Of a stretch of 61,700 nucleotides of DNA, positions 36,816 to 60,600 are shown one piece after another. The position numbers and the translations under genes are program-made. The notes under the pieces were generated by a model. It saw only the letters and a program-made list of their open reading frames with translations, had not been told where the DNA came from and did no database searches. This DNA is from a virus (lineage: Duplodnaviria > Caudoviricetes), in the IMG/VR virus record IMGVR_UViG_3300044681_000784, positions 1 through 61,700 of that record, one strand, 5' to 3'. Positions within the stretch are counted from its first letter, which is position 1. Each line of letters opens with the position of its first letter.

Positions 36816-36927
36816 AACAGATTAGATTTTCGACAAATATATACAAAAGAATTATACCAAACAAACACCTCAACAACGAAAGTAAAGATACCCCTTGACA
36901 ACCTCATCAACTTGGTAAAGATATACC

Positions 36928-37097
36928 ATGACAGAAATGTCGATTCCTTCCTCCCCTACTCTCTCTCTATTTTAACTTCACACGCAACTTTTTTTTATTA
37001 TTTCATTTCGCTTTTAAAATCGACATTATCGACATCTTATTGATTATCAGTACTATTTTCGACATTAAATCGACATTAAAATGTCAGTAATTGACAT
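36928..37097. repeat. Origin-like element, copy 1 (ATGTCGA/TCGACAT iterons in inverted arrangement)
   Basis: Arms at 36928-36943 and 37020-37035 flank a CTACTCTCTCTCTA/T-rich spacer; extra TCGACAT at 37059 and 37070. Confidence 0.7.
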
Positions 37098-37141
37098 ATA
37101 TAGAAGTAAAAGAGAGAAAAGTAGGTAGGTATAGATAAAAG

Positions 37142-37160
37142 AAAAGGGGCCTAAGCCCCT
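37142..37160 (-). terminator. Terminator after 37186..37419
   Basis: Minus strand AGGGGC-TTAG-GCCCCTTTT. Confidence 0.65.
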
Positions 37161-37185
37161 AATCTCGATAACCAAAAAACATATA

Positions 37186-37419
37186 TCAACGTCGCTTAAT
37201 GGGCATCGTAGTCAACATCTGATACCCTAACTCCTTCTCCATCTCAGCACGACGAATACCCTCAGCAATCATGCTCACCTTCTTCTCACGCTTCATGTCA
37301 CTCTTCAACTGAGCAGCTCTCTGAATTCCATTCATACTGCATGGACGATTATTGATCAAACGACCACCGCGAACATCCAACCCATTGGATATCGACTTCA
37401 TAATAATAGGCTTTTTCAT
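37186..37419 (-). CDS. Hypothetical protein (77 aa); first gene of the leftward arm
   Basis: Start MKKPIIMK follows the TATCTTTG promoter at 37434-37441; the upstream part of the 235-aa track ORF is repeat-derived. Confidence 0.65.
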   Translation of the reverse strand: MKKPIIMKSISNGLDVRGGRLINNRPCSMNGIQRAAQLKSDMKREKKVSMIAEGIRRAEMEKELGYQMLTTMPIKRR

Positions 37420-37459
37420 AGTAAGTGTTTTGGCAAAGATACAAAAAGGTTCAGATACA

Positions 37460-37940
37460 CAGGGGCTGAGGGTTCCCCCCTGCTTTGGCGCGGCCGGGCC
37501 CGATGCGAAACCGCCCCTGCGCGAAGGTGGGGGGGGTGCTCTCGGCTTGGCGCAGCTCGGATTTTTGGCGTTTTTCTGCCATGCCCATGCTGTGCTGTTC
37601 CCATGCCGACAAATCTGCCATGCTCCCGATATCTGCCATGCATCCGCATCCGCATCCGCTCCATGCTCCATGCTCCCATCCCCATGCTCCCAATGATCCC
37701 CATGCTCCATGCTCCATGCTCCATGCATCCGATGTGCTGCGCATCCGCATCCATGCATCCGCTGTGCATCCGATTCGTCCCATATTTCGCAAACATTAGG
37801 GACAGGCCGAGCGCACCCAATATCTGCCCAATGACTGCCAAACCAAATGCCAACAATCGGATTTCCCCCGATTATCCCTACCAAATCTGCCATTGTGTCA
37901 GGTCAAAAGAAGGATGACTACCCCCCATCCATGCTCCCGA
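37460..37940. repeat. GC-rich box followed by a strand-biased CCATGC/GCATCC short-repeat field; probable genome terminus/packaging region
   Basis: G-run near 37526-37539; about 14 CCATGC and about 8 GCATCC, all on the + strand; lies at the divergence point of the two arms. Confidence 0.6.
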
Positions 37941-38140
37941 TGACTAAACTCACAAAAAAAATTGCGCTCTACAGCCCTTTGATAGCAAGGGATTCAGAAT
38001 TTTAACATTTTTTTTTGCTTCCCACATTTGGTAGTTTAAAAACTTCTAACGTACTTTGTCATGTTGCTAGTCAAAACATGAACAAAAACTTGTATATATA
38101 TAACCACACGCACGATAATAACCACACACACGATATCACT

Positions 38141-38175
38141 AATCACTAATCACTAATCACTAATCACTAATCACT
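38141..38175 (+). repeat. (AATCACT)5 tandem repeat in the leader of the first early gene
   Basis: Five perfect copies; the same heptamer recurs before several early start codons. Confidence 0.9.
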
Positions 38176-38183
38176 TATCAATC

Positions 38184-38681
38184 ATGAAAATCGCAAGAAG
38201 AATGTATCTAAACATCGGGAAAGCTAACAATCCCTTTGGACAATTTACGGATGAACAATTTGCAGACCTTCTATATAGTCTGCCCGACATTCACAGCAAA
38301 CCACACGTCGAAACCCATGTTGGAGAATGGGAAGGTCAGCGCGAAGAGACCTTTGTGGTAGACCTTATACACTATGATGATGACGCATCATCAAGAACAG
38401 AATCATATTACAAGTTTATCAGCACATTGCTATCCTTCACTACTCAGGATGCCATTGGAGTAATTTCCTTTGATGGCAGAGTAGATGAATCTGCAGGATA
38501 TGTAGAACGCGTTTGGCTGAATGGAGCGGAATTGAGGGAGTATTACTTCAGCAGTCCTCGTCTATTTTGGCATTACGGAGTAGAGCAGAAATATGAATTT
38601 AACAATGAATTCTTCATCATGCCATCTACCATAACTGATGTAGAGCGCGAAGCACATCAAAGAACGCTAAACTTGAAATAA
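38184..38681 (+). CDS. Putative SAM lyase (T3 SAMase-like) anti-restriction protein
   Basis: G-E-W-E-G-Q-R-E-E-T and Q-D-A-I motifs align by eye with the T3 SAMase G.Y...EE.T...QDCV motifs; first rightward gene. Confidence 0.5.
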   Translation: MKIARRMYLNIGKANNPFGQFTDEQFADLLYSLPDIHSKPHVETHVGEWEGQREETFVVDLIHYDDDASSRTESYYKFISTLLSFTTQDAIGVISFDGRVDESAGYVERVWLNGAELREYYFSSPRLFWHYGVEQKYEFNNEFFIMPSTITDVEREAHQRTLNLK

Positions 38682-38685
38682 AAAA

Positions 38686-38703
38686 TGTCTCTTCGAAGAG
38701 ACA
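38686..38703. promoter_or_regulatory. Perfect 18-bp palindrome TGTCTCTTCGAAGAGACA, copy 1 of 5
   Basis: Identical copies at 40119, 40168, 41897 and 43721. Confidence 0.9.
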
Positions 38704-38716
38704 AAATTCCAAACCC

Positions 38717-38920
38717 ATGATTAAAACTAAAAAAATATCATCAGGTCATTACCAAGGTACATACAAGAGCATTGGCTTCAAGGTCATCAAATCTATTCTG
38801 CCAAGCAATGAAGTAGTATGGTATTACCAAATCGGGAATGAGAAGGTGCATGATTTCCATGGGAGCAAATTTGAAGCAATTCAGTCTTTGATATCTTGGA
38901 TAGACGAGACAAAATCTTAA
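38717..38920 (+). CDS. Hypothetical early protein (67 aa)
   Basis: ORF bounded by the palindrome and heptamer repeats. Confidence 0.7.
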   Translation: MIKTKKISSGHYQGTYKSIGFKVIKSILPSNEVVWYYQIGNEKVHDFHGSKFEAIQSLISWIDETKS

Positions 38921-38961
38921 TCACTAATCATTAATCACTAATCACTTAAATCTTATCAATC

Positions 38962-39822
38962 ATGACAAACAAACTTCAAGCAAAATTGGGAATTAACAAG
39001 GTGAATTCTCTAAAAAGCAAAATCGATGCGAGCAATGAGAAATTGGCTCAAAACTACATTGCCATTGGCAAAATCATCGCAGAAGGCTCACTATGGGCAG
39101 ACAGCAAGGAAGGGAAGGAATTGCTGAGAGCGGAAGGTTTAACCAAAGCCGATGTGCTTACTGCCTATGGATACAGCCGTTCTTGGGCATACAAGCTAAT
39201 TGCTGTGTCTAATGTTGATGACGAGACATTGGCTGCGTACCTTGGCCAAGGCAATGTGGAATTCAATGTTGCTGACCTACTGAATTTCATTAACGCTACA
39301 GCGGAAGGTGAAGGTGAAGGTGAAGGTGAAGGTGAAGGTGAAGGTGAAGGTGAAGGTGAAAGCCAATCTAAGCCATCTACCTTGGCGAATTTAACCTTCC
39401 ATTTTGCTGCTGAATCGGTAAAGGTTAGGGTTACTGATGATGGCAAAGTTCACACCAAGAGTGACCTTGATAGCATCCGATTGGCATTGGCAGAACTTAC
39501 GCGAATTGTCGCGGAAGCAGATGCTCAGGCTCAGGCAGATGCCAAGGCTAAGGCTAAGGCAGATGCTCAGGCTCAGGCCAAGGCTCAGGCCAAGCCTACT
39601 CCAATCAAAGATTTCTCCAATGCCCTTGCATATGTTGGTGTAGATGCGCTGAAGGGAAAGGGAGGAATCCTGAATGTGGATAGCTTGCAGTATGTGGAAT
39701 TCGGGAATGAGACGTTCTTCAATGAATCGGGAGAATTGGGCAATGCCGCATCCGAATTCGTAGCGTCTCATGGATGGTCTTATCAGGTCGAAGAACCCTC
39801 TCACTTCTATGTAGCAAAGTAA
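38962..39822 (+). CDS. Early protein with possible DUF3102-like HTH, (EG)9 linker and Ala/Lys/Gln linker
   Basis: IAIGKII...YGYSRSWAYKLI pattern; (GAAGGT)9 at 39304-39357. Confidence 0.7.
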   Translation: MTNKLQAKLGINKVNSLKSKIDASNEKLAQNYIAIGKIIAEGSLWADSKEGKELLRAEGLTKADVLTAYGYSRSWAYKLIAVSNVDDETLAAYLGQGNVEFNVADLLNFINATAEGEGEGEGEGEGEGEGEGESQSKPSTLANLTFHFAAESVKVRVTDDGKVHTKSDLDSIRLALAELTRIVAEADAQAQADAKAKAKADAQAQAKAQAKPTPIKDFSNALAYVGVDALKGKGGILNVDSLQYVEFGNETFFNESGELGNAASEFVASHGWSYQVEEPSHFYVAK

Positions 39823-39836
39823 GTTAGGCAGTTATC

Positions 39837-39872
39837 GGATGGCGCAGTGGATTGGTCTGCTGCCCATCCTTT
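39837..39872 (+). terminator. Hairpin/terminator after 38962..39822
   Basis: GGATGG-CGCAG...CTGCTG-CCCATCC-TTT. Confidence 0.5.
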
Positions 39873-39895
39873 AACAATCCTTAACTATTCAGCTA

Positions 39896-39926
39896 TTGCA
39901 AATGTTCACCTTTATTATAACCTTTG
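39896..39926 (+). promoter_or_regulatory. Early promoter motif TTGCAwATGTyC...CTTTG (copy 1 of 3; others at 43665-43695 and 46091-46121)
   Basis: Three copies, each spanning exactly 31 bp. Confidence 0.65.
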
Positions 39927-39949
39927 TCAAACATTCAAACACACACACT

Positions 39950-40096
39950 ATGACACGTTACCAAATCGAACAGGAATCTATCCGCATCCGCAATGAGCGG
40001 AGGGCAAACCTGAGGAGCGCATTCATCCTCGGCATTGGGATTGTGGGATTGGCATTCAGCTATGCCATCATCATGATTCACTTCCTTGGCCAATAG
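39950..40096 (+). CDS. Small membrane protein (48 aa)
   Basis: Basic N-terminus plus one TM helix; downstream of the promoter. Confidence 0.6.
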   Translation: MTRYQIEQESIRIRNERRANLRSAFILGIGIVGLAFSYAIIMIHFLGQ

Positions 40097-40102
40097 TGGC
40101 CA

Positions 40103-40163
40103 TGCTGCCAATGGTTTTTGTCTCTTCGAAGAGACAAAATCGGTTCGATTCCGATGGCAGCAC
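40103..40163 (+). ncRNA. tRNA-like minihelix (acceptor stem plus T-arm) with the palindrome in place of the D and anticodon arms
   Basis: TGCTGCC(40103-40109)/GGCAGCA(40156-40162) 7-bp stem; ATCGG-TTCGATT-CCGAT T-arm; 24-bp palindrome at 40116-40139. Confidence 0.6.
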
Positions 40164-40215
40164 AAAATGTCTCTTCGAAGAGACAAAATCGCTAATCACT
40201 AATCAATTATCAGCA

Positions 40216-40647
40216 ATGCAAACAATCGCACAGCAGCTAAACGTAACTGAATTTCCTTTCGAAATCCATGATGCTAATGGAAATCTAATATACTATGAAG
40301 AGTCAAGTTCATATTGGTGGAAGCGTGAATACGATTCTAATGGCAATCTAATCTACCATGAAGAGTCAAGTTCATATTGGTGGAAGCGTGAATACGATTC
40401 TAATGGCAATCTAATCTACCATGAAAATTCCGAAGGCTTTTGGCGGAAATATGAATATGATGCTAATGGTAATCAAATCTACTTTAAAGATTCCGATGGC
40501 TATTGGAGCAAATGTGAATACGATTCCGATGGCAATCGAATCTACTTTGAAGATTCCTGTGGATATTGGAGTAAACGTGAATGCGATTCCGATGGAAGTC
40601 TAATCTACTATGAAGATTCCGATGGACTAATCATCGACAATCACTAA
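40216..40647 (+). CDS. 21-aa tandem repeat (YD-like) protein, paralog A
   Basis: 5.5 repeats of YDSNGNLIYxExSxxYWxKxE; true start MQTIAQ. Confidence 0.8.
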   Translation: MQTIAQQLNVTEFPFEIHDANGNLIYYEESSSYWWKREYDSNGNLIYHEESSSYWWKREYDSNGNLIYHENSEGFWRKYEYDANGNQIYFKDSDGYWSKCEYDSDGNRIYFEDSCGYWSKRECDSDGSLIYYEDSDGLIIDNH

Positions 40648-40654
40648 TCAAACC

Positions 40655-40684
40655 TATAGGGGCGCAGCATCCTTCAACACTGCA
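40655..40684 (+). repeat. 30-nt intergenic element, copy 1 (pseudoknot-like)
   Basis: TATAGGGGCGCAGCATCCTTCAACACTGCA, identical at 42345-42374. Confidence 0.85.
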
Positions 40685-40708
40685 CTAATCCTTTAATACC
40701 AAATAACA

Positions 40709-41035
40709 ATGGAAAAGTTAAATCAAATCATCGAATCAATGGCCTATGCCAAATTTCAAAATGATTCATGCCCCATCAAACGCAATGAATTCATAATGGA
40801 GAATGCTACATTGGGCGAATTCATTGACTACTTTCAAACCCGAAAGACATCCGATGGCACATCTTGGCATGACCGATATCATGACCTAATTTTGGGAAAA
40901 ATGGGCGGACTAAACGAGTCCTTTGTCGAAGATGTGCTATGGCCAAAACTTAAAGACAATTACATCGAAGAAGTGGTGAAAGGTCTTGAGGATAAACTTG
41001 ATGCTCAGTATAAAATAACCATTGAACAAATCTAA
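40709..41035 (+). CDS. Hypothetical early protein (108 aa)
   Basis: ORF in the early array. Confidence 0.7.
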   Translation: MEKLNQIIESMAYAKFQNDSCPIKRNEFIMENATLGEFIDYFQTRKTSDGTSWHDRYHDLILGKMGGLNESFVEDVLWPKLKDNYIEEVVKGLEDKLDAQYKITIEQI

Positions 41036-41041
41036 TCAGCT

Positions 41042-41293
41042 ATGTCACTATCAGCGTTAATAGAGAGAAACAAAAACGTCATTCTGCCTGAGCTATATGC
41101 TTGGGCAGAGACCTTCCGATTGTCCGATTTCCCTTCTCGCTTTGATGAAGAGGAAGACAATTCATTCGATGAAGTATGGTCATTGGCCGAGAGATTGGAC
41201 AATGGTCAATGTACGGAGGATGACTACGAAGAAATCATCTTTCACATCGAACAGATTAATTATAACGAAACCAAAATCAATTTAACCATTTAA
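41042..41293 (+). CDS. Small acidic early protein (83 aa)
   Basis: ORF in the early array; Asp/Glu-rich. Confidence 0.7.
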   Translation: MSLSALIERNKNVILPELYAWAETFRLSDFPSRFDEEEDNSFDEVWSLAERLDNGQCTEDDYEEIIFHIEQINYNETKINLTI

Positions 41294-41306
41294 TCAATTA
41301 TCAGCT

Positions 41307-41876
41307 ATGGCTACATCTAATTTTATCACCAACAATGCAAGCAGAATCTTTGTCATTCCGATTCAAGAAGAATTTGATTTCGATGATGCTGCTGCCAATG
41401 TGACTGCATCCCTTATCGGCATTGGCCATGAGTCTACGAGAGAATCATGGGACAGGTACGATGGCAGATACATGACGGAGAAGTTTATGAATGAATGCGT
41501 TTGGAATCCTGAGAATGGAAAGCCAATTGAATTTGATGTCCACATTAAAACTTGCATCAGGTCAGGTTACTATTCCGATGCCAATTTGGATTGGGAGATT
41601 GGCTATTCCTTGGAAGGATATGGCGAATTGGACATCCAATCCGTTCCTGATGAGGACTACATCAAGGAGTTATTGGACAGGAATTCGTATGCTGTATCAG
41701 GCGAGACCGATTCCGATATCTTTGACCTGTTGGCATCCATGATAAGGGAGAGGATTGTCCGAATGATGTCGAGTCTTGTCGAAGAGACAGAGAATGAATT
41801 CCGGCAGAACAGCAGCGCATCACTTCGATGTGTTGGTAGATTCTCCAATGGCGAAGCAATTTACGAACAAGAGTAA
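41307..41876 (+). CDS. Acidic early protein (189 aa)
   Basis: RSGYY..ANLD and FSNGEAIY motifs. Confidence 0.7.
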   Translation: MATSNFITNNASRIFVIPIQEEFDFDDAAANVTASLIGIGHESTRESWDRYDGRYMTEKFMNECVWNPENGKPIEFDVHIKTCIRSGYYSDANLDWEIGYSLEGYGELDIQSVPDEDYIKELLDRNSYAVSGETDSDIFDLLASMIRERIVRMMSSLVEETENEFRQNSSASLRCVGRFSNGEAIYEQE

Positions 41877-41951
41877 CCATTTAATCACCACAAAAATGTC
41901 TCTTCGAAGAGACAAAATCACTAATCATTAACCATTTAATCTTTATCACTT

Positions 41952-42338
41952 ATGTTGGTAGCAATCAATTTAGACATTGACCTTGAGTCAATATTCGTAA
42001 CGGCCTTAGAAGGCGGAAGTAACTATTGGATTGACTTCAGCTCATCCACATTCAAACATCTCAAGGATAAGTATTCGCAGATGTCATTCTCCGAGCGAGT
42101 TTACAATGAATTCATCAGCGGAGGAGCCATTGATGTCTTGGATGTTGAAGGTGATGAATCGGATGTCATCGGCCAAATATCCTTGGCCACTGCACCTTCG
42201 AGACTCGCCAAGATGTTTGAAGATGGCTTCATTTGGAGTCATGCAGACATTTCAGAGTTATTGGATGGAACTGCTGATGCCATTGCGTCAGACATTGTAC
42301 TTCAGTACCTTGCGTTAGGCGAAATAGTTTACGGATAA
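41952..42338 (+). CDS. Conserved phage hypothetical protein (128 aa)
   Basis: TALEGGSNYW...DA...D..LQ...LGEIVYG pattern. Confidence 0.7.
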   Translation: MLVAINLDIDLESIFVTALEGGSNYWIDFSSSTFKHLKDKYSQMSFSERVYNEFISGGAIDVLDVEGDESDVIGQISLATAPSRLAKMFEDGFIWSHADISELLDGTADAIASDIVLQYLALGEIVYG

Positions 42339-42344
42339 CAAAAA

Positions 42345-42374
42345 TATAGGGGCGCAGCATCCTTCAACACTGCA
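42345..42374 (+). repeat. 30-nt intergenic element, copy 2
   Basis: Identical to 40655-40684. Confidence 0.85.
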
Positions 42375-42398
42375 TTAACCATTTTATCTTTATCAATT

Positions 42399-42629
42399 AT
42401 GAACATTTTCATCATTAACACTACAGCCTTTGAAGAAGAGGATTTCTTTTTGCTGACTGACCTGAGTGAGCAAGACATTGTCGAAGTGATTACACCATTG
42501 GTGAATCAGGCGCGAGACGGATACGAGGAGTATGACAATGACCTGTTGGTCAATGCTCTCATTGAGCGTTATCCGAATGCCAAGATTGAGCATTACTGCA
42601 AAGATGCGATTGATTTAATAACCTTTTAA
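42399..42629 (+). CDS. Small acidic early protein (76 aa)
   Basis: INTTAFEEEDF.L.T.L ORF in the array. Confidence 0.7.
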   Translation: MNIFIINTTAFEEEDFFLLTDLSEQDIVEVITPLVNQARDGYEEYDNDLLVNALIERYPNAKIEHYCKDAIDLITF

Positions 42630-42638
42630 TCAGCAGCC

Positions 42639-42896
42639 ATGATACATAACGAGCATTTCGATAAGGCCGACAGAACCTACGAGGTTTGGCACGACAACAA
42701 TGGCAATGCCATTCACATCTTAATCAAGGATGGGGAGGCCATCATCTACCCTACAATCTATGACCTATTTCAGCATTTCCTATGCGGAATGGATGTTGAG
42801 AGAATGTACGTTGATGATGATGTGCTGAACTCAATCTGTGAATTAAACATCTACAATTACTACGAAATCAAAAACAAAATCAATTATCAATCATGA
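42639..42896 (+). CDS. Hypothetical early protein (85 aa)
   Basis: ORF with ATGA coupling to the next gene. Confidence 0.7.
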   Translation: MIHNEHFDKADRTYEVWHDNNGNAIHILIKDGEAIIYPTIYDLFQHFLCGMDVERMYVDDDVLNSICELNIYNYYEIKNKINYQS

Positions 42897-43633
42897 AAAC
42901 AATCGCGCAGAATTTAAACATCAAGGACTTTCCCTTTGAGATTAAGGATGCTAATGGCAATCTAATCTACCATGAAGATTCCACTGCCTTTTGGTGCAAA
43001 TGTGAATGCGATTCTAATGGCAATCTAATCTACTATGAAGATTCCGATGGCTTTTGGCGGAAACATGAATACGATTCTAATGGAAATCAAATCTACCATG
43101 AAAATTCCGGTGACTATTGGAACAAATGTGAATACGATTCCAATGGTAATCAAATCTACTTTGAAAATTCCTATGGCTATTGGAACAAACGTGAGTACGA
43201 TTCCAATGGCAATGAAACCTACTTTGAAGATTCCGGTGACTATTGGAACAAATGTGAATACGATTCCAATGGCAATCGAATCTACTTTGAAGATTCCTGT
43301 GGATATTGGAACAAACGTGAGTACGATTCCAATGGCAATGAAACCTACTTTGAAGATTCCGATGGTGAAATCATCGACAATCGGATTAATGAAGATGTCA
43401 AATTGGTAAATGAAGATGAGAGCGCGAGACAAGTCCTTGAGGGCATGGGGTACTATGTCCGGAATCTATGGTCAGTAAGTGACGTGAACGGATTCAATGG
43501 CAAGGTTTCAAAAGAGGAGGCTCTTAAGATTTTGGCTTCAGCACTAACCCATCCGTACACCATGGAAGTAGTCTTTGGTTTGATTAAAGATGGAGTCAGG
43601 GATTTTGGATATAAAATCGAAGACGAGTCTTAA
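42893..43633 (+). CDS. 21-aa tandem repeat (YD-like) protein, paralog B, with extra C-terminal domain
   Basis: 6.5 repeats plus an ~80-aa C-terminal domain (GYYVRNLWSVSDV). Confidence 0.8.
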   Translation: MKTIAQNLNIKDFPFEIKDANGNLIYHEDSTAFWCKCECDSNGNLIYYEDSDGFWRKHEYDSNGNQIYHENSGDYWNKCEYDSNGNQIYFENSYGYWNKREYDSNGNETYFEDSGDYWNKCEYDSNGNRIYFEDSCGYWNKREYDSNGNETYFEDSDGEIIDNRINEDVKLVNEDESARQVLEGMGYYVRNLWSVSDVNGFNGKVSKEEALKILASALTHPYTMEVVFGLIKDGVRDFGYKIEDES

Positions 43634-43753
43634 CAACATTTAAGAATTCATGGGGCATGGCCTATTGCATATGTCCCATGTTCTTCCAACCTTTGACAAT
43701 CAAATCACATAACACAAAAATGTCTCTTCGAAGAGACAAAATTCTAAATCAAA

Positions 43754-44239
43754 ATGGAAAAATTAATCATTAACTTTCAACAGAATTTTGCGTGGACTCG
43801 CTCCGCAAATAATGTTCTTTCCGTAACATCAAACAATGAAGACATCGTGCTTATTGTAGAGCATTTCGACATCTCAAGACTCGAATACGAAGACGCACTG
43901 CCACAGATGGCTGTTGTCGGTGATGGATTCTTCTTCGTGTACGATGGTAGTGATTTCTATCTTGGAGGCCAAGAGCCTATAGAAATATCGGAGACTGAGG
44001 TGTTTTTCGAGGCCACAGGTGACGTATCAAAGCCTATCTACTACCATTACAATGAGTCATGGCACTGCTCCCTACACAACGAAGAGACCGACAAGATTCT
44101 TCGCGAGGCTAACTCCATGCTTACCAATGGCAAGGTGAGTAAGATTGTTGGTGACGAAGCTGTTGACTCCATCTACGTTAGAAGGGGAGCGTATCGTGGT
44201 GCTAAGTTTATTCAAGAACAAATAATCGCAGCCAAATGA
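43754..44239 (+). CDS. Hypothetical early protein (161 aa)
   Basis: ORF after promoter copy 2 and palindrome copy 5. Confidence 0.7.
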   Translation: MEKLIINFQQNFAWTRSANNVLSVTSNNEDIVLIVEHFDISRLEYEDALPQMAVVGDGFFFVYDGSDFYLGGQEPIEISETEVFFEATGDVSKPIYYHYNESWHCSLHNEETDKILREANSMLTNGKVSKIVGDEAVDSIYVRRGAYRGAKFIQEQIIAAK

Positions 44240-44472
44240 CATCCGAGCGTATAGTTTTTCGGGGAGTTACCTACCCATTGTACATCGTATCTGTGGATGG
44301 AATTGACCATCATCTTTCTGTTGTTGCGTTAGCAGATGCAATCTTCGATGAGAACGAAGAGTTCGTTTCGGATGAGGCATACAGAATAGACATGGGCATA
44401 TCCTACTACCTGAGTGATGACGAGTTAAATCTTTCTACAATTCAAATTCAAAACTTAATTAGAAACCTATGA
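44236..44472 (+). CDS. Small acidic protein (78 aa)
   Basis: ATGA-coupled ORF; A..ID..I.YY motif. Confidence 0.7.
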   Translation: MTSERIVFRGVTYPLYIVSVDGIDHHLSVVALADAIFDENEEFVSDEAYRIDMGISYYLSDDELNLSTIQIQNLIRNL

Positions 44473-44984
44473 GACCGATTGATTATGTAAACAGAATGGC
44501 AGAGCCATACAGAAGTGAGTTCATTGCAAACACCTTGAAGTGGAGGGGAAGGGAGGAAGGAGCAAGGTGGCTGAACGAATACTCAGATAGATGGAATGGA
44601 TTCAACCAAGTAATCTATGGAGCATTCCCTTGGAGCGTAACAGAGCAAGGCAGACGCTATTGGGCGGCAGCCTACAGGCTTTATGGCGGAAAGAGTTTCA
44701 GTCCGCTAACTGCTGAAGACTTGGCCGAGTGGTCGAACATCACTGCTGTTGGAGATGAGACAGATGAGATTACCTTTTGGCAGGTTATTTTTAATGGAGA
44801 GATTCATTCCGAACACAAGAACTACACCGATGCTTTCACTGTCTTTGACAGGCTTAAGTACGGAGAGGGAGAGGAAGTCATCGGCCTTAGAGAGTTCTTG
44901 TCTCGGTCTGTCGAGTTATTTCAAAGCAGATGGGCACTTAACAGAGGTCAGCACCACATCCAAACAACCACAATACGGAGATGA
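44469..44984 (+). CDS. Hypothetical protein (171 aa)
   Basis: ATGA-coupled ORF; AF.W..T.QG..YW motif. Confidence 0.7.
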   Translation: MRPIDYVNRMAEPYRSEFIANTLKWRGREEGARWLNEYSDRWNGFNQVIYGAFPWSVTEQGRRYWAAAYRLYGGKSFSPLTAEDLAEWSNITAVGDETDEITFWQVIFNGEIHSEHKNYTDAFTVFDRLKYGEGEEVIGLREFLSRSVELFQSRWALNRGQHHIQTTTIRR

Positions 44985-45238
44985 TTTGGAAGCACATCAT
45001 TGAGCCATTGACAGGTCAAATAGACAGATGGTTCTTCAGCCTATCGATGGCTGACAAGCGAGACATATTGGGTGAGGGGATTGGTATGTATGGGATGCTT
45101 AGGCTTTGGGGTTCTATGGACTTGGAGCAGAAGATTCGGACATACGATATGTACCATGAGACTCACCCATCCTCATCAGTAGGTATATTTGTTGGGGAAT
45201 CAAACGATTCATTAACCATTAAATTCAAAACACCATGA
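44981..45238 (+). CDS. Hypothetical protein (85 aa)
   Basis: ATGA-coupled ORF. Confidence 0.6.
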   Translation: MIWKHIIEPLTGQIDRWFFSLSMADKRDILGEGIGMYGMLRLWGSMDLEQKIRTYDMYHETHPSSSVGIFVGESNDSLTIKFKTP

Positions 45239-45735
45239 ATAACTTAATGTATATTTTTGGAGGAGTCTTAGGCTTCTTCATTGGGTTCTTTGTGATACCA
45301 AAAGACAACGGCATTTCAAAGTACATTCAAGACGAGCCTACTATTGACTCGTGTGTGTCAGTAGTCCATGAATCTCCGGAAACAAAACAATTCCCTGACT
45401 CGCTGATGACATTGGTTGATGCCATGATTCAGGTAGAGAGCAGTGGAAATCATTGTGCCTACAACAAGAGGGAGGATGCTGTTGGATGCCTACAGATAAG
45501 ACCTATCATGGTCAGGGAGGTGAACAGGCTGTTGGGTAGGGAGGAGTACACGATGAATGACAGGTGGGACTACACCAAGTCTTTGGAGATGTTCCTTGTT
45601 GTGGTGGAACACCATCATCCTGATGGATCATTTGAGGGCATAGCGAGGTGTTGGAATGGTGGCCCGAATGGTATGCGGATGGAGTCTACCAAGACGTATT
45701 GGGAAAAAGTTTTGTCAAGGATAGGTTCTTCTTAA
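45235..45735 (+). CDS. Membrane-anchored lysozyme-fold protein (i-type/destabilase or SLT-like)
   Basis: N-terminal TM; AMIQVESSG, A.GCLQI, AR.WNGGP.G...YW motifs. Confidence 0.75.
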   Translation: MNNLMYIFGGVLGFFIGFFVIPKDNGISKYIQDEPTIDSCVSVVHESPETKQFPDSLMTLVDAMIQVESSGNHCAYNKREDAVGCLQIRPIMVREVNRLLGREEYTMNDRWDYTKSLEMFLVVVEHHHPDGSFEGIARCWNGGPNGMRMESTKTYWEKVLSRIGSS

Positions 45736-45759
45736 TTTTTTCTTAGTTTTGCAGACAAT

Positions 45760-45867
45760 AGTCAGGTGGCGTAAGTGTGAATGAATAGCACTGAAAAGGT
45801 AACGCATCAGTGGGATAGCATCCCTTAATATTTCTGATAGATGCAAGTTCGAATCTTGCCCTGACTA
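45760..45867 (+). ncRNA. tRNA-like RNA with expanded D and anticodon loops
   Basis: AGTCAGG/CCTGACT acceptor, GCGT/ACGC D stem, ATCAG/CTGAT stem, GCAAG-TTCGAAT-CTTGC T-arm; promoter TAGTTTTG at 45744-45751. Confidence 0.7.
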
Positions 45868-45930
45868 CAACTTGTCATTAAAGGTGCAAAAACCAAAATG
45901 TTGTGTGCCTTTATGACCACTTAATAATAT

Positions 45931-46004
45931 TGCGGAGTAGTAGCAGTTGGTAGCTCGTCAGTTTCATAAGCTGAAGGTCGTGGGTTCGAGTCCCACCTCC
46001 GCAA
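45931..46004 (+). tRNA. tRNA-Met (CAT), initiator-derived variant
   Basis: Cloverleaf TGCGGAG/CTCCGCA, TCAGT-TTCATAA-GCTGA, GTGGG-TTCGAGT-CCCAC; no encoded CCA. Confidence 0.85.
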
Positions 46005-46234
46005 CATTTAATTCAATTTAGTATGAGCGATTTTATCAGAAGGAAGATCTTAATCTTTAAATATCTTTAACAAATAAAGTGGAACTGCGCTTGCATATGT
46101 CCATTATTATTATAATCTTTGTGTATCAATATAATAAACAATGAAGTTTTTTATTTGGTAGTTACAAACAGATTGCATATCTTTGTTGGCGAAGCGAATG
46201 CGCCCTATGTCATTCGCACACAGACACTAATCAA

Positions 46235-46537
46235 ATGAAATCAAAAGTGTTCAAACAAATCTCATCCAAGGTCATGGAAGCATTTGACTTGGATGTAGAG
46301 ACAATGTCCTCGGACAGAAGAAGGAGCAGCGTTGAGGCTCGTCAAATGCTTTACTACATCGCAAGGCGGAGGAACATCAGGCTCGTCGACATTCAAGACC
46401 TGATGAACGATGTGTTCGGGGTGAGGCCATCCCACACCTCAGTCATCCATGGCATCAAGACCACAGAGAAGAAGGTCAGGGAGGACAATGACTTCCACGT
46501 TGTAGCAAGTAGAATCAATCAATCAGTAACCATTTAA
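46235..46537 (+). CDS. DnaA domain-IV-like HTH protein
   Basis: R.R..V.ARQM.YY......I......HTSVIHG.K; TATCTTTG promoter at 46178-46185. Confidence 0.7.
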   Translation: MKSKVFKQISSKVMEAFDLDVETMSSDRRRSSVEARQMLYYIARRRNIRLVDIQDLMNDVFGVRPSHTSVIHGIKTTEKKVREDNDFHVVASRINQSVTI

Positions 46538-54620: not shown

Positions 54621-57600
54621 TTACTTGCCGTATGCCTCGTCCTTTATGGCCTGCATCTCCTTGTCAATCTCTCTGTCCATCTCTTTTATCTCTTCCCTGA
54701 CATCGTATCCGGGAGAGTTCGGGCCGTAAACATCATCGTACAGATCCGGGAAGTACCGCTTCATATCCCCCTTGTTCATGCCACCTTGTTGCTTTTCTTC
54801 TGTATCGGGCCGGTAAGACTCGGTAATTCCAAGCATATCGTACGTTGCAGCGTCTTCCTCCTTTTGGTCGCTCGCACCGAAGAAGTAATTGTAAATGCCA
54901 ATGAACGGATCAAGCTGAGCCCCAATTATAATCTCAATGATAGGCTGAGTCGCTCCCCAAATCTCTCCTTCAGATAAATATTGCTTAGATTTTTGGTACT
55001 TTCTGAACAGTGACATGAATGGGTTTACAGTATCGTCAGCCTTTCTGAAGTCACCTTCTGCGTAGGACACCATGGTCTCTACAGCAGATCCAATAAGTGG
55101 GATTGAGTATATCAGGTTCAAGCCAAGCATGGCATTACGCATAGCCTTCAGTGCCTCTTCCTTGTCCTCTTCATCGCCCTTGATAAACTTGGCAAGGTTG
55201 GCCCCACCAACAAACAGCGCGTTTGTAATAGCTACGTTCAACATTAATCCGCGCACATCTTTTGCTTTAGGTATTTTTCCCTTTGATATGCTCCTCATTA
55301 TGTTGGTAGAGGTCTGAGCAGTCTTGTTCATCATCAAGAAAACTGTACTTCCAAACATGGTGAACAACCTTTGGAACTCATTGTTGCTCATTTGAATTGG
55401 AGACTTCTCGGTAGCTCTTCGAGACTGCTGTGTTGCATTGTAGTTGTTGAAAGCCTCCAACGCTTCAGCTTGAGTAAAGCCTTGCTTTATCATTCTGTTG
55501 TACACAGCCATGTAACCAAGGACGCCTGTGATGTCACCAAGGACTGTAAATGATCCGCCCGATGTTTTAAAAGCCCTTCTTGCTTTGGCCCAAGCAGAAG
55601 ATGATTTAGATATAGGCCGGAACAATCCGGTGCCTGACTCCAAGCCATAAACGTCACCCTCCAAGCCTTGGTCCAACCTGTCCTTTACGTTGGCAGACAT
55701 ATTGTAAGCCTTCTTAATTTGAATTGGCAACGTCGCAATAATGTATGCCATGTCAACCATAAACATGATGTGGTCCAACACAGGAGTAGGCTTCCCTTTC
55801 CTTACTGTGTAGTCTTCAAAAGCTTGTACAAAAGAAATTCCCTGCTTAACAATTTGAATTGCCTTGAAAGCGAGTGCAAAGCCTGTGAACTTGGATGCTA
55901 TCTTACCAACAAAAGTTGATGGCTCACGAGTCATTGACTCAGGATTTATGGCGAAGTTCAGGGCCCTCATTATCATGGGCTTTGTTCCTGTCTGTTCAAG
56001 GAGTGTAACCACATCTTGAAGCTTGAAAATCTGAGCAATCTTCCGGACTCCAACCGCCATGGCCTTGTATTTCTCCATTGACCGGAAGTGAGCGTCAAGA
56101 ACTGATGTAAAGTCGGCACCATCGATATCGATCTCGCCCTTGGTGTCTGTCCTCTCCTTAAGTGCCGGAGCTGTTTCTGCATTGAACGTAGATCCAAAGT
56201 CACCGGACTCCAACACCTTGCCATCAATTCTTGTTTGAATGGTTTTGGTCGGGAAGTAGTTGCTGACGTATCCAAGGTTTACGTTATTAACGTATGAGTA
56301 CACGTTGTTTACAGAGTCGAAGTACGAGTTTGACAGGTAGTCAACCACTCCATCAGCAACAGCCTTTTGCTTATCAGTAAGAGCAGCCTCAATCTCATTG
56401 ATGTCTATGCCCATTTCAATGAGCTTCTTCCTCTGAACATCGTTCTTACTTAGAGCGTAAAGCCTTAGTATTTGATCGAGGTTAAGTGGTGACTTGTATG
56501 TTCCAACCTGAAGAAAAACAGGGGGGCCACTCAAACTTCTTGTGAAGTCCTTGTAGTTTTTAAATCCATTTGCCCGGGCCAATCCATCAAGCATTAAAAT
56601 CTGATTGAAGTATCCTCTCTTGGTAGCCTCATCCATCCTGTTTAGCGCATCGTATACGTTCTTCTTGAAGAAGTCACCTCCCTTGTCCAACACATTCAAA
56701 AGAGTACCAAGGTGGTATATCTTCTTACGCATGAAGTCATGAAAACCGGTTACAGTTTGGAAGTCTATGGTCTTTACCCAACCCTTAATCCCTTCCCAAA
56801 TCTTTAGGCTCCGGAAGTTTTCCCATATCATTCTCCTTTCTGCAGCAAGTTGGTTCTTTCCTTTCAGAGTTCCATCTTCGTTGTAAAGTATGCCAAAGTC
56901 AGCCTGAATTTGGTCCTTTGCCTGTTGGTTCAGCGATGATATCTCACTGCTAAGGACAAGCTTGTCAGCCTTCAGTCTAACGATACCTTCCGATGCGATC
57001 TCCTTCAGTCTTTGAGCAAGCATATTGAGTGCTTCCATGTGCTGCCATGGGCTCGGAGAAACACCTGTACTTGTAAAGCCTGTCAGAAAATCTCTGACAA
57101 CTTCCAACTCCTGCAAGGCAACCGTAGTGTTAAACGCAGCTCTCTCCTGAGAGGTAAGCTCCTCCCCGTTGTCTAACTTCTGCTGAACAACGTCAAGGTC
57201 AATACCCTTTAAAGCCAACACAGCCGGATCTACAGAGTCCATTATCCTGTCGATTGCGCTTGAGTCTCCGTCTCTCGCCTCCATTGTTATGGCCCTGAAC
57301 ACAGACTTCATCGTGGCGAATAGAGATTGGGTGTCGGCATCAACCCTTCCTGCCCTTCTCTTCCCTGACTGAGTAGAACTAATCTTGGCAGCCTTGTTTA
57401 TTATAGCAGAGATTTCTTTCACCTTAGCCTTGCTCATCTTTGTCAACTGCCGAGTAACAACGTCGAGAACCTTTTGAGCTTGCTCGCTAAAGTTATCAAG
57501 AGTTGTGTTGGTGATGGCTGAGATCAACCTGTTGATTTGAGCCTGAGTAAATGCTGAAGACTTTGGAAGCGTTGTCCTTATGTAGTTCTTCAATTGAATC

Positions 57601-60600
57601 TGAGCAGCAAGAAGCTGTTTTCTTCCTGTTCTCATGTCTCTTATCTCTTTACGCTGAGCTTTCAGAGTAGCTTCAATCTCCTTCTTTGCCATCAACTCCT
57701 TCTGCTTCTCAATCAAATTGAGAACGCGCTCGGCCTGAGCGTTGAAGTTATTGACATCTGTACTGCCAACCAACCTTACAAGACGCTCTATTCGGGCCGG
57801 GCTGAAGCCACTTGTTTGTGGCAACACATCGGAGATGAAGTCTATGAGCTTCTTCTGAGCAGCAGCAAGTTCTTTGATGCCCATCTTCTTGGCCGCCAAT
57901 CCCTTTTTAATCTGAGAAATCTGAGCGTCCACAGACCTGTTGGCCCGGGTAGATAGAGATTGGTCAAAGCCAATCAACAACTCGTCCTGCACAATCTTTG
58001 CTTGGGCCTTGAATATCGGATGATCCTTTAATAGTTCGATGGCCTTTTGCCGGACCTCAGACATGGTCCTTGTCCTTTCCTTGCCATCCGCTTCCTTCAC
58101 CTTCTTGCGAGCGTACTTGCTCAACTGCTGACGAACATCAGCGTACATCTTCATCCCTTCTTTTACCCCACCCTGTACGTTTGTAAATGACTGAGGTAGG
58201 TTGGTCATAAGGTCCACCTTTACCTCCAAGGCAGTGTTTATATCACCGGCCTTAAACCCACGACGCAAAAGTATTTCCTTGATGGACTGATCGGAGAAAC
58301 CATTTGCCCGGCCAAGGTCTATGATGCTCTGCATGGAGTCTTCGGCCCGGGCCATGGCGGTAAGGCTTCTCATTGACTCAAGCTGCTTGTCAGAGATCTT
58401 CATGTCCTCACCTTGAATCATGTCGGCAATAGCGGTTTCGATAAACTTATCCAAAGACAGATCCTGAATTTCTTCAATGCTCAGGTCTTTTGACATTTTA
58501 AATTTGTTACGGACATACTCCCACATGGCAAACAAGAACTCCTGAAACTTAGACTTGGTTGCCGCATCAGAAATTTGCTGTCCTTTATTACCTATGAGTA
58601 TTGCCAACATCTCGTTCAATGCTGCCGCTTCATTGCCATCGAACTCTTCCATCTGTCTTTCGAACATGGCCTTCAACTTGGGATCGGTCTTGATTCCCTC
58701 CTTTAAAACGGATATACCACGCTCAAGTAATTGCCGGCCCTTGCTGCCGGGCTCAGAGGTTGCCAACATATTAAGCCAAACGTGACCGAACTCATGTATG
58801 ACAGTATTGAACATATCAGATTCTGAGTTGTGCACGTCGGGGTTTATGTAGATGTCTCCATTGGCAGTAACACCATAGAGGATCGCATCCCCTTTCATCT
58901 GAAGCCTTGTCCCTGATTCTGCTATAATATTATTGAAAGCTTCGGCTGTTGTATAAACCGAAACATTTGGGAATGTTCTGTTGATAAGAGAAATCAACTG
59001 CATTGCTTTTGTTCTGCTGTTGCCTACAAACCTTCCCATAAACTCAGGTAACCCCATACCTACCCCAAGAGCACTTGATGGTGGTAGGGGTTTTTTCTTT
59101 GCAGACAAAGCCTCTATGTTTTTTCCAATTATAGCACCGTAGGCTGAAGGCATTACACTTTGCACAGGCAAAGGTTTACTTAAAACACCAAAAGACATTC
59201 CTTCGGCACCATATTCATAGTTTGGATGATCAACATTGATCACACCACCTGCTTCTTTGTACGATCCGTCAGGCTGTTTTTCTGCCACCTTAACTCCTAC
59301 TATTGATGTGACCGATCCGATTGGGACATTAGCTACGGATGGATCAGCTATCACATCGATTATAGACTGTATGTGCAGAAGAGCGTTATTCTTTGTCTTA
59401 CCGATGATAGCTTTTATAAATTTATTTGTAGGAGGATTAAAAGTTTTTGTTTTAGTCGATGCGCTTCCCGAGGTAATCATTTTGATTAAAGCTGCACGAG
59501 GTCCCAAAGGCATATCAAAAATAGCACTTAAAACGTCTTCAAGACTTGAAGCATCTTTTAGTATATCAGCAGCAGAATTTGAATCCTTTTCAGATTTTGA
59601 TATTGTCTTTTTCTTTTCTCCTCTTTTTTCTCTTAGCTTATTCTCCTTTTCCTGTACCGCATATTTTTCTTTTGCGTTTATTAGGATTCTTTTCAACTCT
59701 TTAAAAGCGGCTTTCTTTTTAGTTTCAGAAAGGTTCATAGAGTTAATCCTATCAACAACAACCCTTGACAAAGCCTCGTTTGAAAGGATAGAATCTTCCC
59801 CCATTTTTACAACAAGCATTGGCACCATACCGTCGTACTTCGGATTGTCTGCCCAAAACTTTTCAATTACTTCTTTGTTGTTGTTGTATATTTCACGAGC
59901 CTTTCTTACCTGTTCATTTGCTTTTGGACGCGATACATTCGCCCAAGCCGCTTTTGCAAACCGTTTAATGCCATTGAAACCTAACCCACCAAAGAGTTTC
60001 AATATCTTGTTCCCTGTCACCGGATCTGTAACTCCTTCGTTTGACGCTACGAGATAGTCGGATATGGTTGTGAGTACAGGGACACCATTTAAAATCTCTA
60101 TGCTCACCGTCTCAAGGGGTGTATCAAGCTTTGAGTTAAGCTCATCTACATCTGTTTCCACGTCAGTATCTACCTCTGTTCCTGCTGAGAACTCAACGAG
60201 TGGGCTTTCGAGATTGTTCATCTCGTCAAGTATGGCCTCAAACTCTGCGTCTTCAGTCACTCCTGAATCTTCCCCGGCTTTCCGAGCTTGGGGGGTTTCC
60301 TTGGTTTGCCCCAACAACTCCTCTACCGCTTTAACCAACTCGGGATTGCTTCCGTCTTCCTTTGCCTTGTGGTAGGCTTCGGAGATTTCTTTATTTAACT
60401 CTTTGTCCCTGTAGATATTATTTAAACCTGTGTATGTGTTTATGTTTTTAGACAAACTATACATTCTTGGCTTTTCTCCCCACCCTTCAACTTCATACAC
60501 AGAATCATCTCCTAAATAAACTGCGTAGTGCCTTGCATCATTCTTATCTCCAAATGCTATAATGTCACCAACCTTTAATATTTTTTGCAATTCGGATACA

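Follow-up and report, generated by a model that had tools for sequence, protein, structure and literature searches.

In T7-like Murciavirus phages a type I restriction system is described as restricting the phage only if its motif lies in the region that is injected first, and the authors of that work cite the first-transfer region of T5 and point out that headful packaging would make such avoidance irrelevant (PMC12455610). Two further kinds of described system concern the spacers between genes. In T4-type phages, promoter-early stem-loops (PeSLs), short conserved regulatory motifs that flank small and mostly unknown genes in hyperplastic regions, are reported as exchange points for indels and replacements between close relatives (PMC2839356; PMC4122927). 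In plant mitochondria, tRNA-like 't-elements' of mRNAs are reported to contribute to the formation of mRNA 5' and 3' ends (PMC1920247). Here we describe the early-gene block of the virus record IMGVR_UViG_3300044681_000784 (Duplodnaviria; Caudoviricetes), the full 61,700 bases of which form the window of this study. An earlier inspection of its letters alone (the original prediction) had singled out the interval 37699-46121 as an array of gene cassettes with repeated control elements, and had proposed that it is a first-entry anti-defence module whose genes are exchanged, and/or whose RNA is cut, at identical spacers. That observation is now partly confirmed and its interpretation partly supported: at the level of sequence, a site-free leading block of exchangeable cassettes holds. 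We read the interval, with most probability, as the block of early genes of a lytic podophage that has Bacteroidota-type signals and belongs to an uncultured family.

Restriction-site depletion in the early block

The central feature of the window is a 7.9-kb zone, 37696-45625, that is free of GATC and flanked by sites at 37695 and 45626. Between 37699 and 45625 we count 0 occurrences against 47.3 expected under a Markov model, bearing out the earlier report that GATC is absent up to 45625, and the rest of the window has 223 against 250.5 expected. The second-largest GATC gap in the window is 1,814 bp. When all 4-, 5- and 6-mers (strand-symmetrised) are ranked by their gaps, that of GATC comes top, with a product of gap and rate of 28.7; going by this figure and an exponential approximation, the chance of such a gap for one word would be of the order of 1e-10. 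Gaps in CCCGG (9.4 kb) and CCGG (4.3 kb; left edge at 37494) start at the same place.

This avoidance is achieved via synonymous codons. In the 17 open reading frames (ORFs) of the early block, GAT/GAC usage for Asp is 0/12 before C and 105/51 before other bases (Fisher p = 3.8e-6), and ATC/ATT+ATA usage for Ile is 0/31 after G and 80/72 after other bases (Fisher p = 2e-9). In a set of 12 genes from the remainder of the genome, GAT tends if anything to be preferred before C (61/34 before C, 248/285 before other bases; p = 0.0017), and ATC after G is not avoided (53/134 after G, 124/313 after other bases; p = 1). The window genome encodes no DNA methyltransferase of the Pfam families PF02086, PF01555 or PF00145. 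As a separate matter, CTAG is nearly absent across the whole window (2 copies, ~90 expected), and several relatives are devoid of GATC, CTAG, CATG or CCGG genome-wide.

A query with the Sak annealing protein of this phage recovered 285 relatives in IMG/VR, from which 80 loci were retained for comparison, and 12 complete genomes were compared, namely the window, the GenBank phage MW202828.1 and ten IMG/VR records pieced together from fetched stretches (G001-G010). Local word gaps that begin at the divergent gap to the left of the early genes and span the early block rank first or second in strength in six of the first seven genomes (the window, MW202828 and G001-G005). The words that are cleared differ: GATC in the window (gap 7.9 kb), GCAGC in MW202828 (12.5 kb), CCGG in G001 (8.2 kb, gap times rate 45), CCGG and CCCGG in G002 (4.6 and 8.9 kb), CAGG and ACCTG in G005 (5 and 11 kb) and, in G003, all of CCAG, TCGA, GATC, AGCT and GCGC (11-17 kb; gap times rate 33-62). 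In the 10.8-kb block of G003, eight 4-mer palindromes are each present in 0-4 copies against 17-38 Markov-expected, and in the rest of that genome the same eight words range from about half of to slightly above expectation. Among the more distant five genomes (G006-G010), early-block gaps rank lower or are missing among the top six words: CAGCA is the top word in G010, AAGCT the second in G007, GCAGC the third in G009 and ACAGT the fourth in G008, with only AAGAAG in G006. A further observation on G003 (the record behind locus L064) is that along ~16 kb, from the repeat field past Sak, ACGT, AGCT, CCGG, CGCG, CTAG, GATC, GCGC and TCGA are absent or nearly absent, being common elsewhere, and that 6-bp palindromes as a class drop to 2.3 per kb in this stretch as against 11.8 per kb elsewhere.

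The depletion is polar. All seven genomes that bear GATC, the window included, deplete it in the early block. When these seven are pooled in 2-kb bins counted from the start codon of the GroEL gene, the observed/expected ratio is 0.73-1.05 from -10 to 0 kb, with 1.05 in the bin next to the start codon (-2 to 0 kb). It falls to 0.31 at 0-2 kb, reaches 0.09-0.10 between 2 and 6 kb, and then rises to 0.30-0.31 at 6-10 kb, to 0.42-0.53 at 10-16 kb and to 0.71, 0.44, 0.75 and 0.73 in the successive bins of 16-24 kb. The profile is one-sided, with a sharp left edge at the non-coding gap and a gradual recovery over ~15 kb. Enough sequence on both sides of Sak was available for 33 of the 80 related loci: a 4-mer palindrome is missing only upstream of Sak at eight of them (10 word instances) and only downstream at none. 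Six loci have 5 or more GATC downstream of Sak, and in every one of them the observed/expected ratio of GATC is lower on the upstream side.

These properties agree with what is described for the first-step-transfer (FST) region of T5 and for the T7-like Autographiviridae: sites are missing only from an early, first-expressed block, the rest of the genome keeps them, and the block is highly variable and rich in small early genes. Depletion that is polar, confined to the block and recurrent across the family is what a first-entering region predicts, and in this respect the proposal that the early block is under selection against restriction sites has fared well. The present case differs in that it concerns an uncultured family with Bacteroidota-type signals, a GroEL and a giant protein of 3.9 thousand amino acids; in that the avoided words are of 4-5 bp and type-II-like, up to eight at once in one relative; in that the profile is graded over ~15 kb and the leading end is predicted from sequence alone; and in that there is no recognisable Ocr and no homologue of T5 A1/A2 turned up.

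The reading that we favour, with moderate confidence, is that of a first-entering, anti-restriction early block of the T7/T5-like kind whose cassettes are shuffled in a PeSL-like manner. The block would start at the non-coding repeat field and be read rightwards from three or four host-type promoters, and it would enter the cell first and slowly, meeting the restriction enzymes of the host ahead of any phage protein. Selection would hence have removed GATC, and partly CCGG and CCCGG, from it; the rest of the genome would arrive once the early proteins have neutralised restriction, so that its sites could stay. A single sharp stop would account for the gradual recovery less well than an entry that is paced and perhaps driven by transcription. 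By their position and by precedent, some of the small acidic early proteins presumably inhibit restriction.

A historical mosaic would account for the depletion differently: a block imported from a lineage that avoids GATC genome-wide would have inherited the pattern, which would then not have been selected here and would be uninformative on DNA entry. Potential donors of this kind exist, since 5 of the 12 complete genomes have 0 GATC anywhere, the two closest relatives among them, and a lineage of this sort could conceivably have donated a GATC-free block. The block is also a recombination hot-spot, and G004 (the record behind locus L029) has a reversed CGCG pattern, with 11 copies against 25 expected in the block and 2 against 59 in the other 50 kb, the one clear case in which the early block is less depleted than the rest. 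However, the best nucleotide match of the early segments to the closest relatives is 89%, with most at 65-80%, and therefore there was no recent import from these relatives. Moreover, the direction is constant, both for the seven GATC-bearing genomes and for the ten early-only word instances, and the pooled profile does not have the two sharp edges of an imported segment. Because this profile is one-sided, sharp at the non-coding gap and slow to recover along early transcription, and because different words are cleared in different genomes, we ascribe it to selection rather than shared history and regard the mosaic as improbable.

We place equally little weight on a variant in which the whole genome enters at once, and the early and middle genes avoid sites so that restriction inhibitors can be expressed, along with recombination and repair functions that rescue cuts elsewhere. 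The depletion gradient does run through the early block and then the recombination/replication module, and the phage does encode Sak and an exonuclease. However, a single genome would be liable to be cut at any of its 223 GATC sites with no template for repair. Nor does such a scheme predict the sharp left edge (a ratio of 1.05 in the bin before the start codon, -2 to 0 kb, and of 0.09 at 2-4 kb), and the genes on the left (GroEL) would be needed too.

Beyond the GATC-free genomes and the reversed CGCG pattern, several points count against a first-entering, anti-restriction block. G004 has no word cleared in its early block. All assemblies examined are circular, and the 'direct terminal repeats' that IMG/VR assigns to G002 and G003 are overlaps of 99 and 127 nt, the size of assembler words (G006 is classed by IMG/VR in the same way; the overlap was measured in G002 and G003). 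Headful packaging would undo the first-entry argument. Finally, 15 of the 17 early ORFs are without a Pfam or PHROG match, and none of the 17 matches an anti-restriction family (Ocr, ArdA, SAM lyase).

The left boundary: terminus or origin

The predicted position of the leading genome end is the non-coding divergent gap at 37445-38183, which separates a leftward block (a 77-aa gene, GroEL and the structural genes) from the rightward early block. The 77-aa gene that ends the leftward block has an internal ATG at 37419, and a longer ORF call of 235 aa crosses the repeat field and has no family match. The gap holds the tandem-repeat field that had been noticed ahead of the block: 6-, 7- and 9-mers at 37640-37726, as delineated by Tandem Repeats Finder. 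Copy number or length of this field differs between strains, and other sequencing runs have indels at 37630-37673. We also considered assembly breaks as a sign of a physical end, since all five complete contigs examined in this respect break within ~2.3 kb of the GroEL/early gap, and rejected them because an assembly break at repeats explains them (the ends of one contig overlap inside tandem repeats). The assembled contigs that cover the stretch in other runs reveal no starts or ends of molecules.

Five TCGACAT iterons lie within 140 bp at 36937-37076, and similar ATGTCG repeats occur at the same place, upstream of GroEL, in G001 and G003; the cluster could serve as an origin or as an operator. 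Three runs share a contig joint, 48000->37012, which suggests that a related repeat may lie near 48 kb.

It is possible, though in our view on the unlikely side, that what lies at the repeat field and the iterons is not a terminus but an origin of replication or a region that regulates the divergent promoters. Such a role would suit the density of the iterons and their counterparts in the two relatives, the minimum of the cumulative GC skew at 38-39 kb and the DnaA-type helix-turn-helix (HTH) protein encoded at 46235. The two roles are compatible and not exclusive, however, and an origin alone would leave unexplained the one-sided gradient of restriction sites that starts at the repeat field.

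Turnover of gene cassettes at shared spacers

The early block proper consists of 17 plus-strand ORFs of 48-286 aa at 38184-45735; as had been said of its small genes, the products are mostly acidic (15 of 17, with a pI of 4.05-5.85). Among the 16 ORF junctions, 5 are overlaps of 4 nt, 3 are spacers of 6-13 nt and 8 are spacers of at least 35 nt. The claim that almost every gap contains a part of a small repeat kit is borne out for this last class, in which all eight spacers have at least one part. The ORFs fall into three apparent transcription units: the first ends at a stem-loop (39837-39869), and the second and third start at the promoter-like copies at 39896 and 43665.

Contigs from three other runs, belonging to three other studies and 97-99% identical to the window in the flanks, reveal what becomes of these spacers between close strains. 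One joint, 38707->41027, connects the 3' edge of the first hairpin to the leader in front of the 83-aa gene across 13 kit-like letters; a second, 42377->42621, starts at the end of the second copy of a direct repeat and deletes the 76-aa gene; at a third, 41938->42386, the 128-aa gene is skipped together with its downstream repeat. Two contigs have a 216-nt insertion exactly at the gene boundary at 45238, and tRNA-Met is missing in two contigs (joint 45894->46010). Several shorter joints, with sides of 30-38 nt, are weaker evidence. At larger distances, the last five ORFs are collinear with those of G001 and G002 and the first half is re-ordered, the first gene of the window being fifth in both. 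The 128-aa gene adjoins the DnaA-HTH gene in G001 and G002 and is also located elsewhere in G005, and its cassette is an insertion relative to locus L007. For 5 of the 20 ORF calls none of six relatives has a homologue; one of these five is probably a spurious ORF in the repeat field.

Cassettes are thus gained, lost and re-ordered with breakpoints in shared spacers, and the expectation that gene order would vary among relatives, with breaks at the repeats, proved correct. As in the PeSLs of T4-type phages, in so far as the cited descriptions go, breakpoints between close relatives lie at repeated regulatory motifs, here at three joints. The arrangement is different in that only one of the five stem-loops (43721) stands directly behind a promoter motif, the pairing being limited to 43665-43738, in that the stem-loops do not look like sense-strand terminators, and in that the kit also includes leaders and tRNA-like modules. 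We suppose that the parts of the kit (leader, stem-loop, tRNA-like module and promoter) are expression signals, and that by being near-identical they double as short homologies for the gain, loss and re-ordering of cassettes; the exchange would probably be carried out by the Sak/exonuclease recombination system that the phage encodes next door.

In all, 17 public runs (marine, soil, lagoon, aquaculture and other metagenomes; 13 studies) contain 30-43% of the 31-mers sampled from 36900-46100, and no RNA run is listed among those with the stretch. The phage lineage appears to be widespread, because the three of these 17 runs that were compared with the window carry strains with the above 97-99% identity in the flanks.

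The repeat kit

One structured part of the kit is an 18-bp palindrome, TGTCTCTTCGAAGAGACA, which, as originally counted, occurs five times (38686, 40119, 40168, 41897 and 43721) and nowhere else in the 61.7-kb record, with 0 matches in a control read backwards. In this genome it represents a more widely occurring hairpin, whose core is GTCTC-N6-GAGAC. All five copies are given on the plus strand: the first (38686-38703; z -5.7) lies between ORF 1 and ORF 2, the second (40119-40136) inside a tRNA-like element, the third (40168-40185) ahead of the AATCACT leader of the next gene, the fourth (41897-41914) upstream of the 128-aa cassette and the fifth (43721-43738) in the leader between the second promoter-like copy and the 161-aa gene. 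G001 has 13 copies (7 in the block) and G002 has 12 (6 in the block), with reversed-sequence controls at 0, and beyond the clade of the window the hairpin is found as 3 single copies in 79 further sequences. A mini-ORF starting from an ATG ahead of four of the palindromes was considered and dropped, since the ATG context is not conserved in the related loci L007 and L008.

The second copy is embedded in a tRNA-like fold; the original prediction had mentioned such folds, and two are recovered alongside a normal tRNA. The element with the hairpin (40103-40162, plus strand) is devoid of a D-arm and has an 8-bp acceptor-like stem, the hairpin at the position of the anticodon arm and a T-arm with the T-loop UUCGAUU; its minimum-free-energy structure is a three-way junction (z -4.17, with other copies at -0.9 to -2.8). 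Seven copies are available from three genomes, one in the window, three in L007 and three in L008. In each, the hairpin is in sense orientation and precedes a T-arm whose loop region reads GGTTCGAnTCC, and an acceptor-like stem of 6-8 bp closes the whole. The fold is conserved: of the 15 pairs in the consensus, 6 show compensatory changes, and these 6 belong to the acceptor-like stem and the T stem. A covariance model gives its 7 training copies 60-79 bits (70.3 for the copy in the window) and its next match in the 12 genomes 28.5 bits; it thus finds only its training copies, and therefore the element is confined to the clade of the window. ARAGORN alone calls a 'tRNA-Lys' at 40079-40163, but the element is no tRNA gene by Rfam RF00005 (no match at E<=5), and it has no D-arm and a loop of 4-6 nt.

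As with the plant t-elements, in the published account, the element is a mimic of an acceptor stem and T-arm at a gene boundary, with its three-way junction recurring in all seven copies; the phage element differs in having no D-arm, in carrying the conserved hairpin of the phage itself, and in being known from sequence alone. By this analogy, the hairpin and the tRNA-like element might stabilise or process the polycistronic RNA, for example via RNase P/Z.

The early genes of T7 have RNase III sites between them, and the repeated structured elements in the gaps of a polycistronic early transcript are a point of likeness. The hairpin described here has a 7-bp stem, however, and is shorter than typical RNase III substrates.

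The properties of the hairpin itself fit an RNA-level role less well. Six of the 13 copies in G001 and 6 of the 12 in G002 are outside the early block, some of them inside long ORFs; its stem never covaries, 5 of 6 pairs being invariant; and it has no sense-strand T-run, such that 4 of the 5 copies in the window score as terminators on the antisense strand only. Conservation of sequence without covariation, together with copies outside the block and inside ORFs in the two closest relatives, speaks against a pure RNA-processing role. The 6-nt centre is mostly TTCTCG and its complement in G001 and is TTCGAA in G002 and the window, even at orthologous sites. This homogenisation within each genome suggests either gene conversion between copies or a factor, particular to each genome, by which the centre is read. 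Genome-specific centres are seen at orthologous pairs of sites (for example, oriented positions G001/G002: 10943/10401, 25121/24657, 43978/44649 and 53754/54366), and in the helicase gene the difference in the centre alters an amino acid (SLFSET as against SLFEET).

Accordingly, one has to weigh the possibility that GTCTC-N6-GAGAC acts on DNA and not on RNA, be it as a site for binding or recombination by a dimeric protein, as a selfish palindrome spread by gene conversion, or as an N4-style hairpin promoter for a virion RNA polymerase. In keeping with this, the arms are invariant across three genomes and the centre varies and can be flipped; the centre is homogenised even at the price of a change in the helicase; some copies sit inside ORFs; and the genome encodes a 3,893-aa protein, of virion size and unknown function. 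Against it, seven copies form part of a tRNA-like fold, in which they are always sense-oriented and the other helices covary, and host-type promoter motifs already precede the units. For the N4-type variant in particular, the giant protein has no sequence similarity to solved RNA polymerases (PDB, E<=1) or to Pfam or PHROG polymerases. On balance we hold a role on DNA to be doubtful, if worth keeping in mind.

A 31-bp promoter-like motif has exactly the three full matches in the genome that had been reported, all on the plus strand: 39896-39926 (TTGCAAATGT ... AACCTTTG), 43665-43695 and 46091-46121, the last of which heads the replication/recombination module (DnaA-type HTH protein, Sak, exonuclease, primase and helicase). 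The motif resembles what we take to be the consensus of the -33/-7 type promoter of Bacteroidota. The AATCACT heptamers, likewise recovered, have 11 of their 15 copies on the plus strand between 38141 and 41916, with 5 in tandem ahead of the first gene. There they belong to a leader array (38135-38180, plus strand; 7-nt unit ATCACTA, 6.6 copies), and an AATCACT/TAATCA leader recurs before other early genes; the A/C-rich, unstructured leader type includes AATCACT and TAACCATTTAA. In other metagenomes many contigs share with the window only the leader of the first gene, with loose ends at 38138-38171. The supposed 30-nt pseudoknot-like element present twice survives as a two-copy direct repeat of 49 nt (40649-40697 and 42339-42387, plus strand; 88% identity), the second copy of which lies downstream of the 128-aa cassette. 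Its interpretation as a pseudoknot was not supported: in a nested fold it does not surpass shuffled sequences (z -0.27), and the repeat is absent from all six relatives examined.

Gene content of the block and of the genome

The first early ORF (38184-38681, plus strand) encodes a 165-aa ORFan with a pI of 4.9, whose homologues among 5.8 billion proteins are itself and two relatives at 87%. It has no Pfam match at E<=0.1, no PHROG match at E<=0.01 and no phmmer match in the PDB at E<=10; its best score in the ESM Atlas is 0.86, to unnamed clusters, and its AlphaFold model (pLDDT 49.2) is too poor for fold comparison. The suggestion that the block opens with a SAM-lyase-like gene (of the T3 SAMase or Svi3-3 type) is accordingly not supported: sequence similarity was looked for and not found, the predicted model being unusable for the fold.

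Two ORFs of 67 aa (38717-38920) and 286 aa (38962-39822) follow on the plus strand. The 286-aa protein contains linkers of low complexity, of the (EG)n and AQAK kinds, and weakly matches an HTH, and its homologue is the first conserved early ORF in G001 and G002 (the second ORF call, behind one unmatched call). In both of these homologues the hairpin sequence occurs in frame, directly ahead of the (EG)n linker. The first unit is closed by the terminator-like stem-loop at 39837-39869 (plus strand; -21.9 kcal/mol, z -5.45, with 0 of 200 shuffles as good). Next comes a 48-aa ORF (39950-40096, plus strand; pI 10.7) with a hydrophobic C-terminal helix, the homologues of which in G001 and G002 sit directly upstream of their tRNA-like elements.

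Eight small acidic ORFs occupy 40216-43633 on the plus strand (143, 108, 83, 189, 128, 76, 85 and 246 aa). The 143-aa (40216-40647) and 246-aa (42893-43633) proteins are paralogous and acidic, with 6-7 tandem YD-like repeats of 21 aa (63 nt). This pair has a weak RHS/YD-repeat match (E=3e-4), and recombination between the two genes is seen in contigs from other strains. The 128-aa protein is a member of a phage protein family that is widespread (97 homologues found; model pLDDT 84.9), has no PDB match at E<=0.001, and its matches in BFVD are to uncharacterised phage proteins only. The third unit has five overlapping plus-strand ORFs at 43754-45735 (161, 78, 171, 85 and 166 aa), which are those collinear with G001 and G002; the last of them, the 166-aa ORF, has a weak SLT lytic-transglycosylase match. 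The block is closed by an aberrant tRNA or tRNA-like element (45760-45867, plus strand; Rfam tRNA 39.9 bits), which has insertions of 27 nt in the D-loop and 23 nt in the anticodon loop, the latter forming a small hairpin, and is not called by ARAGORN. It is followed by a normal tRNA-Met (CAT; 45931-46005, plus strand), the one that is missing in some close strains.

The genome as a whole is that of a podophage. A giant minus-strand ORF is cut by the linearisation of the record into 1,534 aa (2-4603) and 2,359 aa (54621-61700), 3,893 aa together. Because this ORF overruns both ends and the corresponding gene (3,859 aa) is undivided in MW202828.1, the window is a circularly permuted assembly. 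MW202828.1, the closest GenBank relative, is circular, 60,850 bp long and has a primase of 75% identity; the next cultured relatives are Flavobacterium podophages, and no near-identical DNA was found among GenBank phages. The giant ORF has a weak SprT-like match and matches to DUF3293 and phrog_9880 (function unknown), none of them informative; its halves have no polymerase match in PHROGs or Pfam and no relevant PDB match at E<=1, and a remote homology is conceivable. The minus-strand genes comprise, by PHROGs, the terminase large subunit, the portal, virion proteins (one with a weak match to the crAss 'muzzle') and a GroEL chaperonin, and the plus strand beyond 46 kb has the DnaA-type HTH protein (46235), the Sak annealing protein, the exonuclease, the primase and the helicase. 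The phage GroEL (35190-36815, minus strand; PHROG E=6e-136) adjoins the divergent gap in all 11 other complete genomes, and in MW202828.1 it is annotated next to a GroES.

Implications

Systems of this kind are already known from T5, from T7-like phages and from the PeSLs of T4. What is new here is the phage family, the strength of the site depletion and its graded, one-sided form across many relatives, the clearing of multiple words in one relative, and the conserved hairpin and tRNA-like modules with their concerted evolution. One might go further and see in the graded, one-sided depletion a sequence-only readout of slow, directional and probably transcription-paced entry across a large uncultured family of 285 relatives. 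In the clade of the window, the early RNA would then be punctuated by tRNA-like modules and hairpins to which host RNase P/Z, or else a factor of the phage, is recruited, in a phage version of the 'tRNA punctuation' of mitochondria; these modules would at the same time provide the joints at which anti-defence cassettes recombine. This fuller scheme we put forward tentatively, as unlikely to be right in all its parts.

The findings furnish several leads: the small acidic ORFs form a set of candidate inhibitors of type II restriction; the cleared words predict the restriction repertoire of the host, which for the window phage would include a GATC-cutting enzyme; and the compact conserved spacers, with their leader, hairpin and tRNA-like module, have putative roles in RNA processing and cassette exchange that can be tested. 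More generally, the idea of the leading region as a battleground, hitherto based on experiments with T5 and T7-like phages, would extend to an abundant uncultured family with Bacteroidota-type signals, in which the position and direction of genome entry may be predictable from word statistics alone: a sharp edge, a recovery over ~15 kb and different words in each relative.

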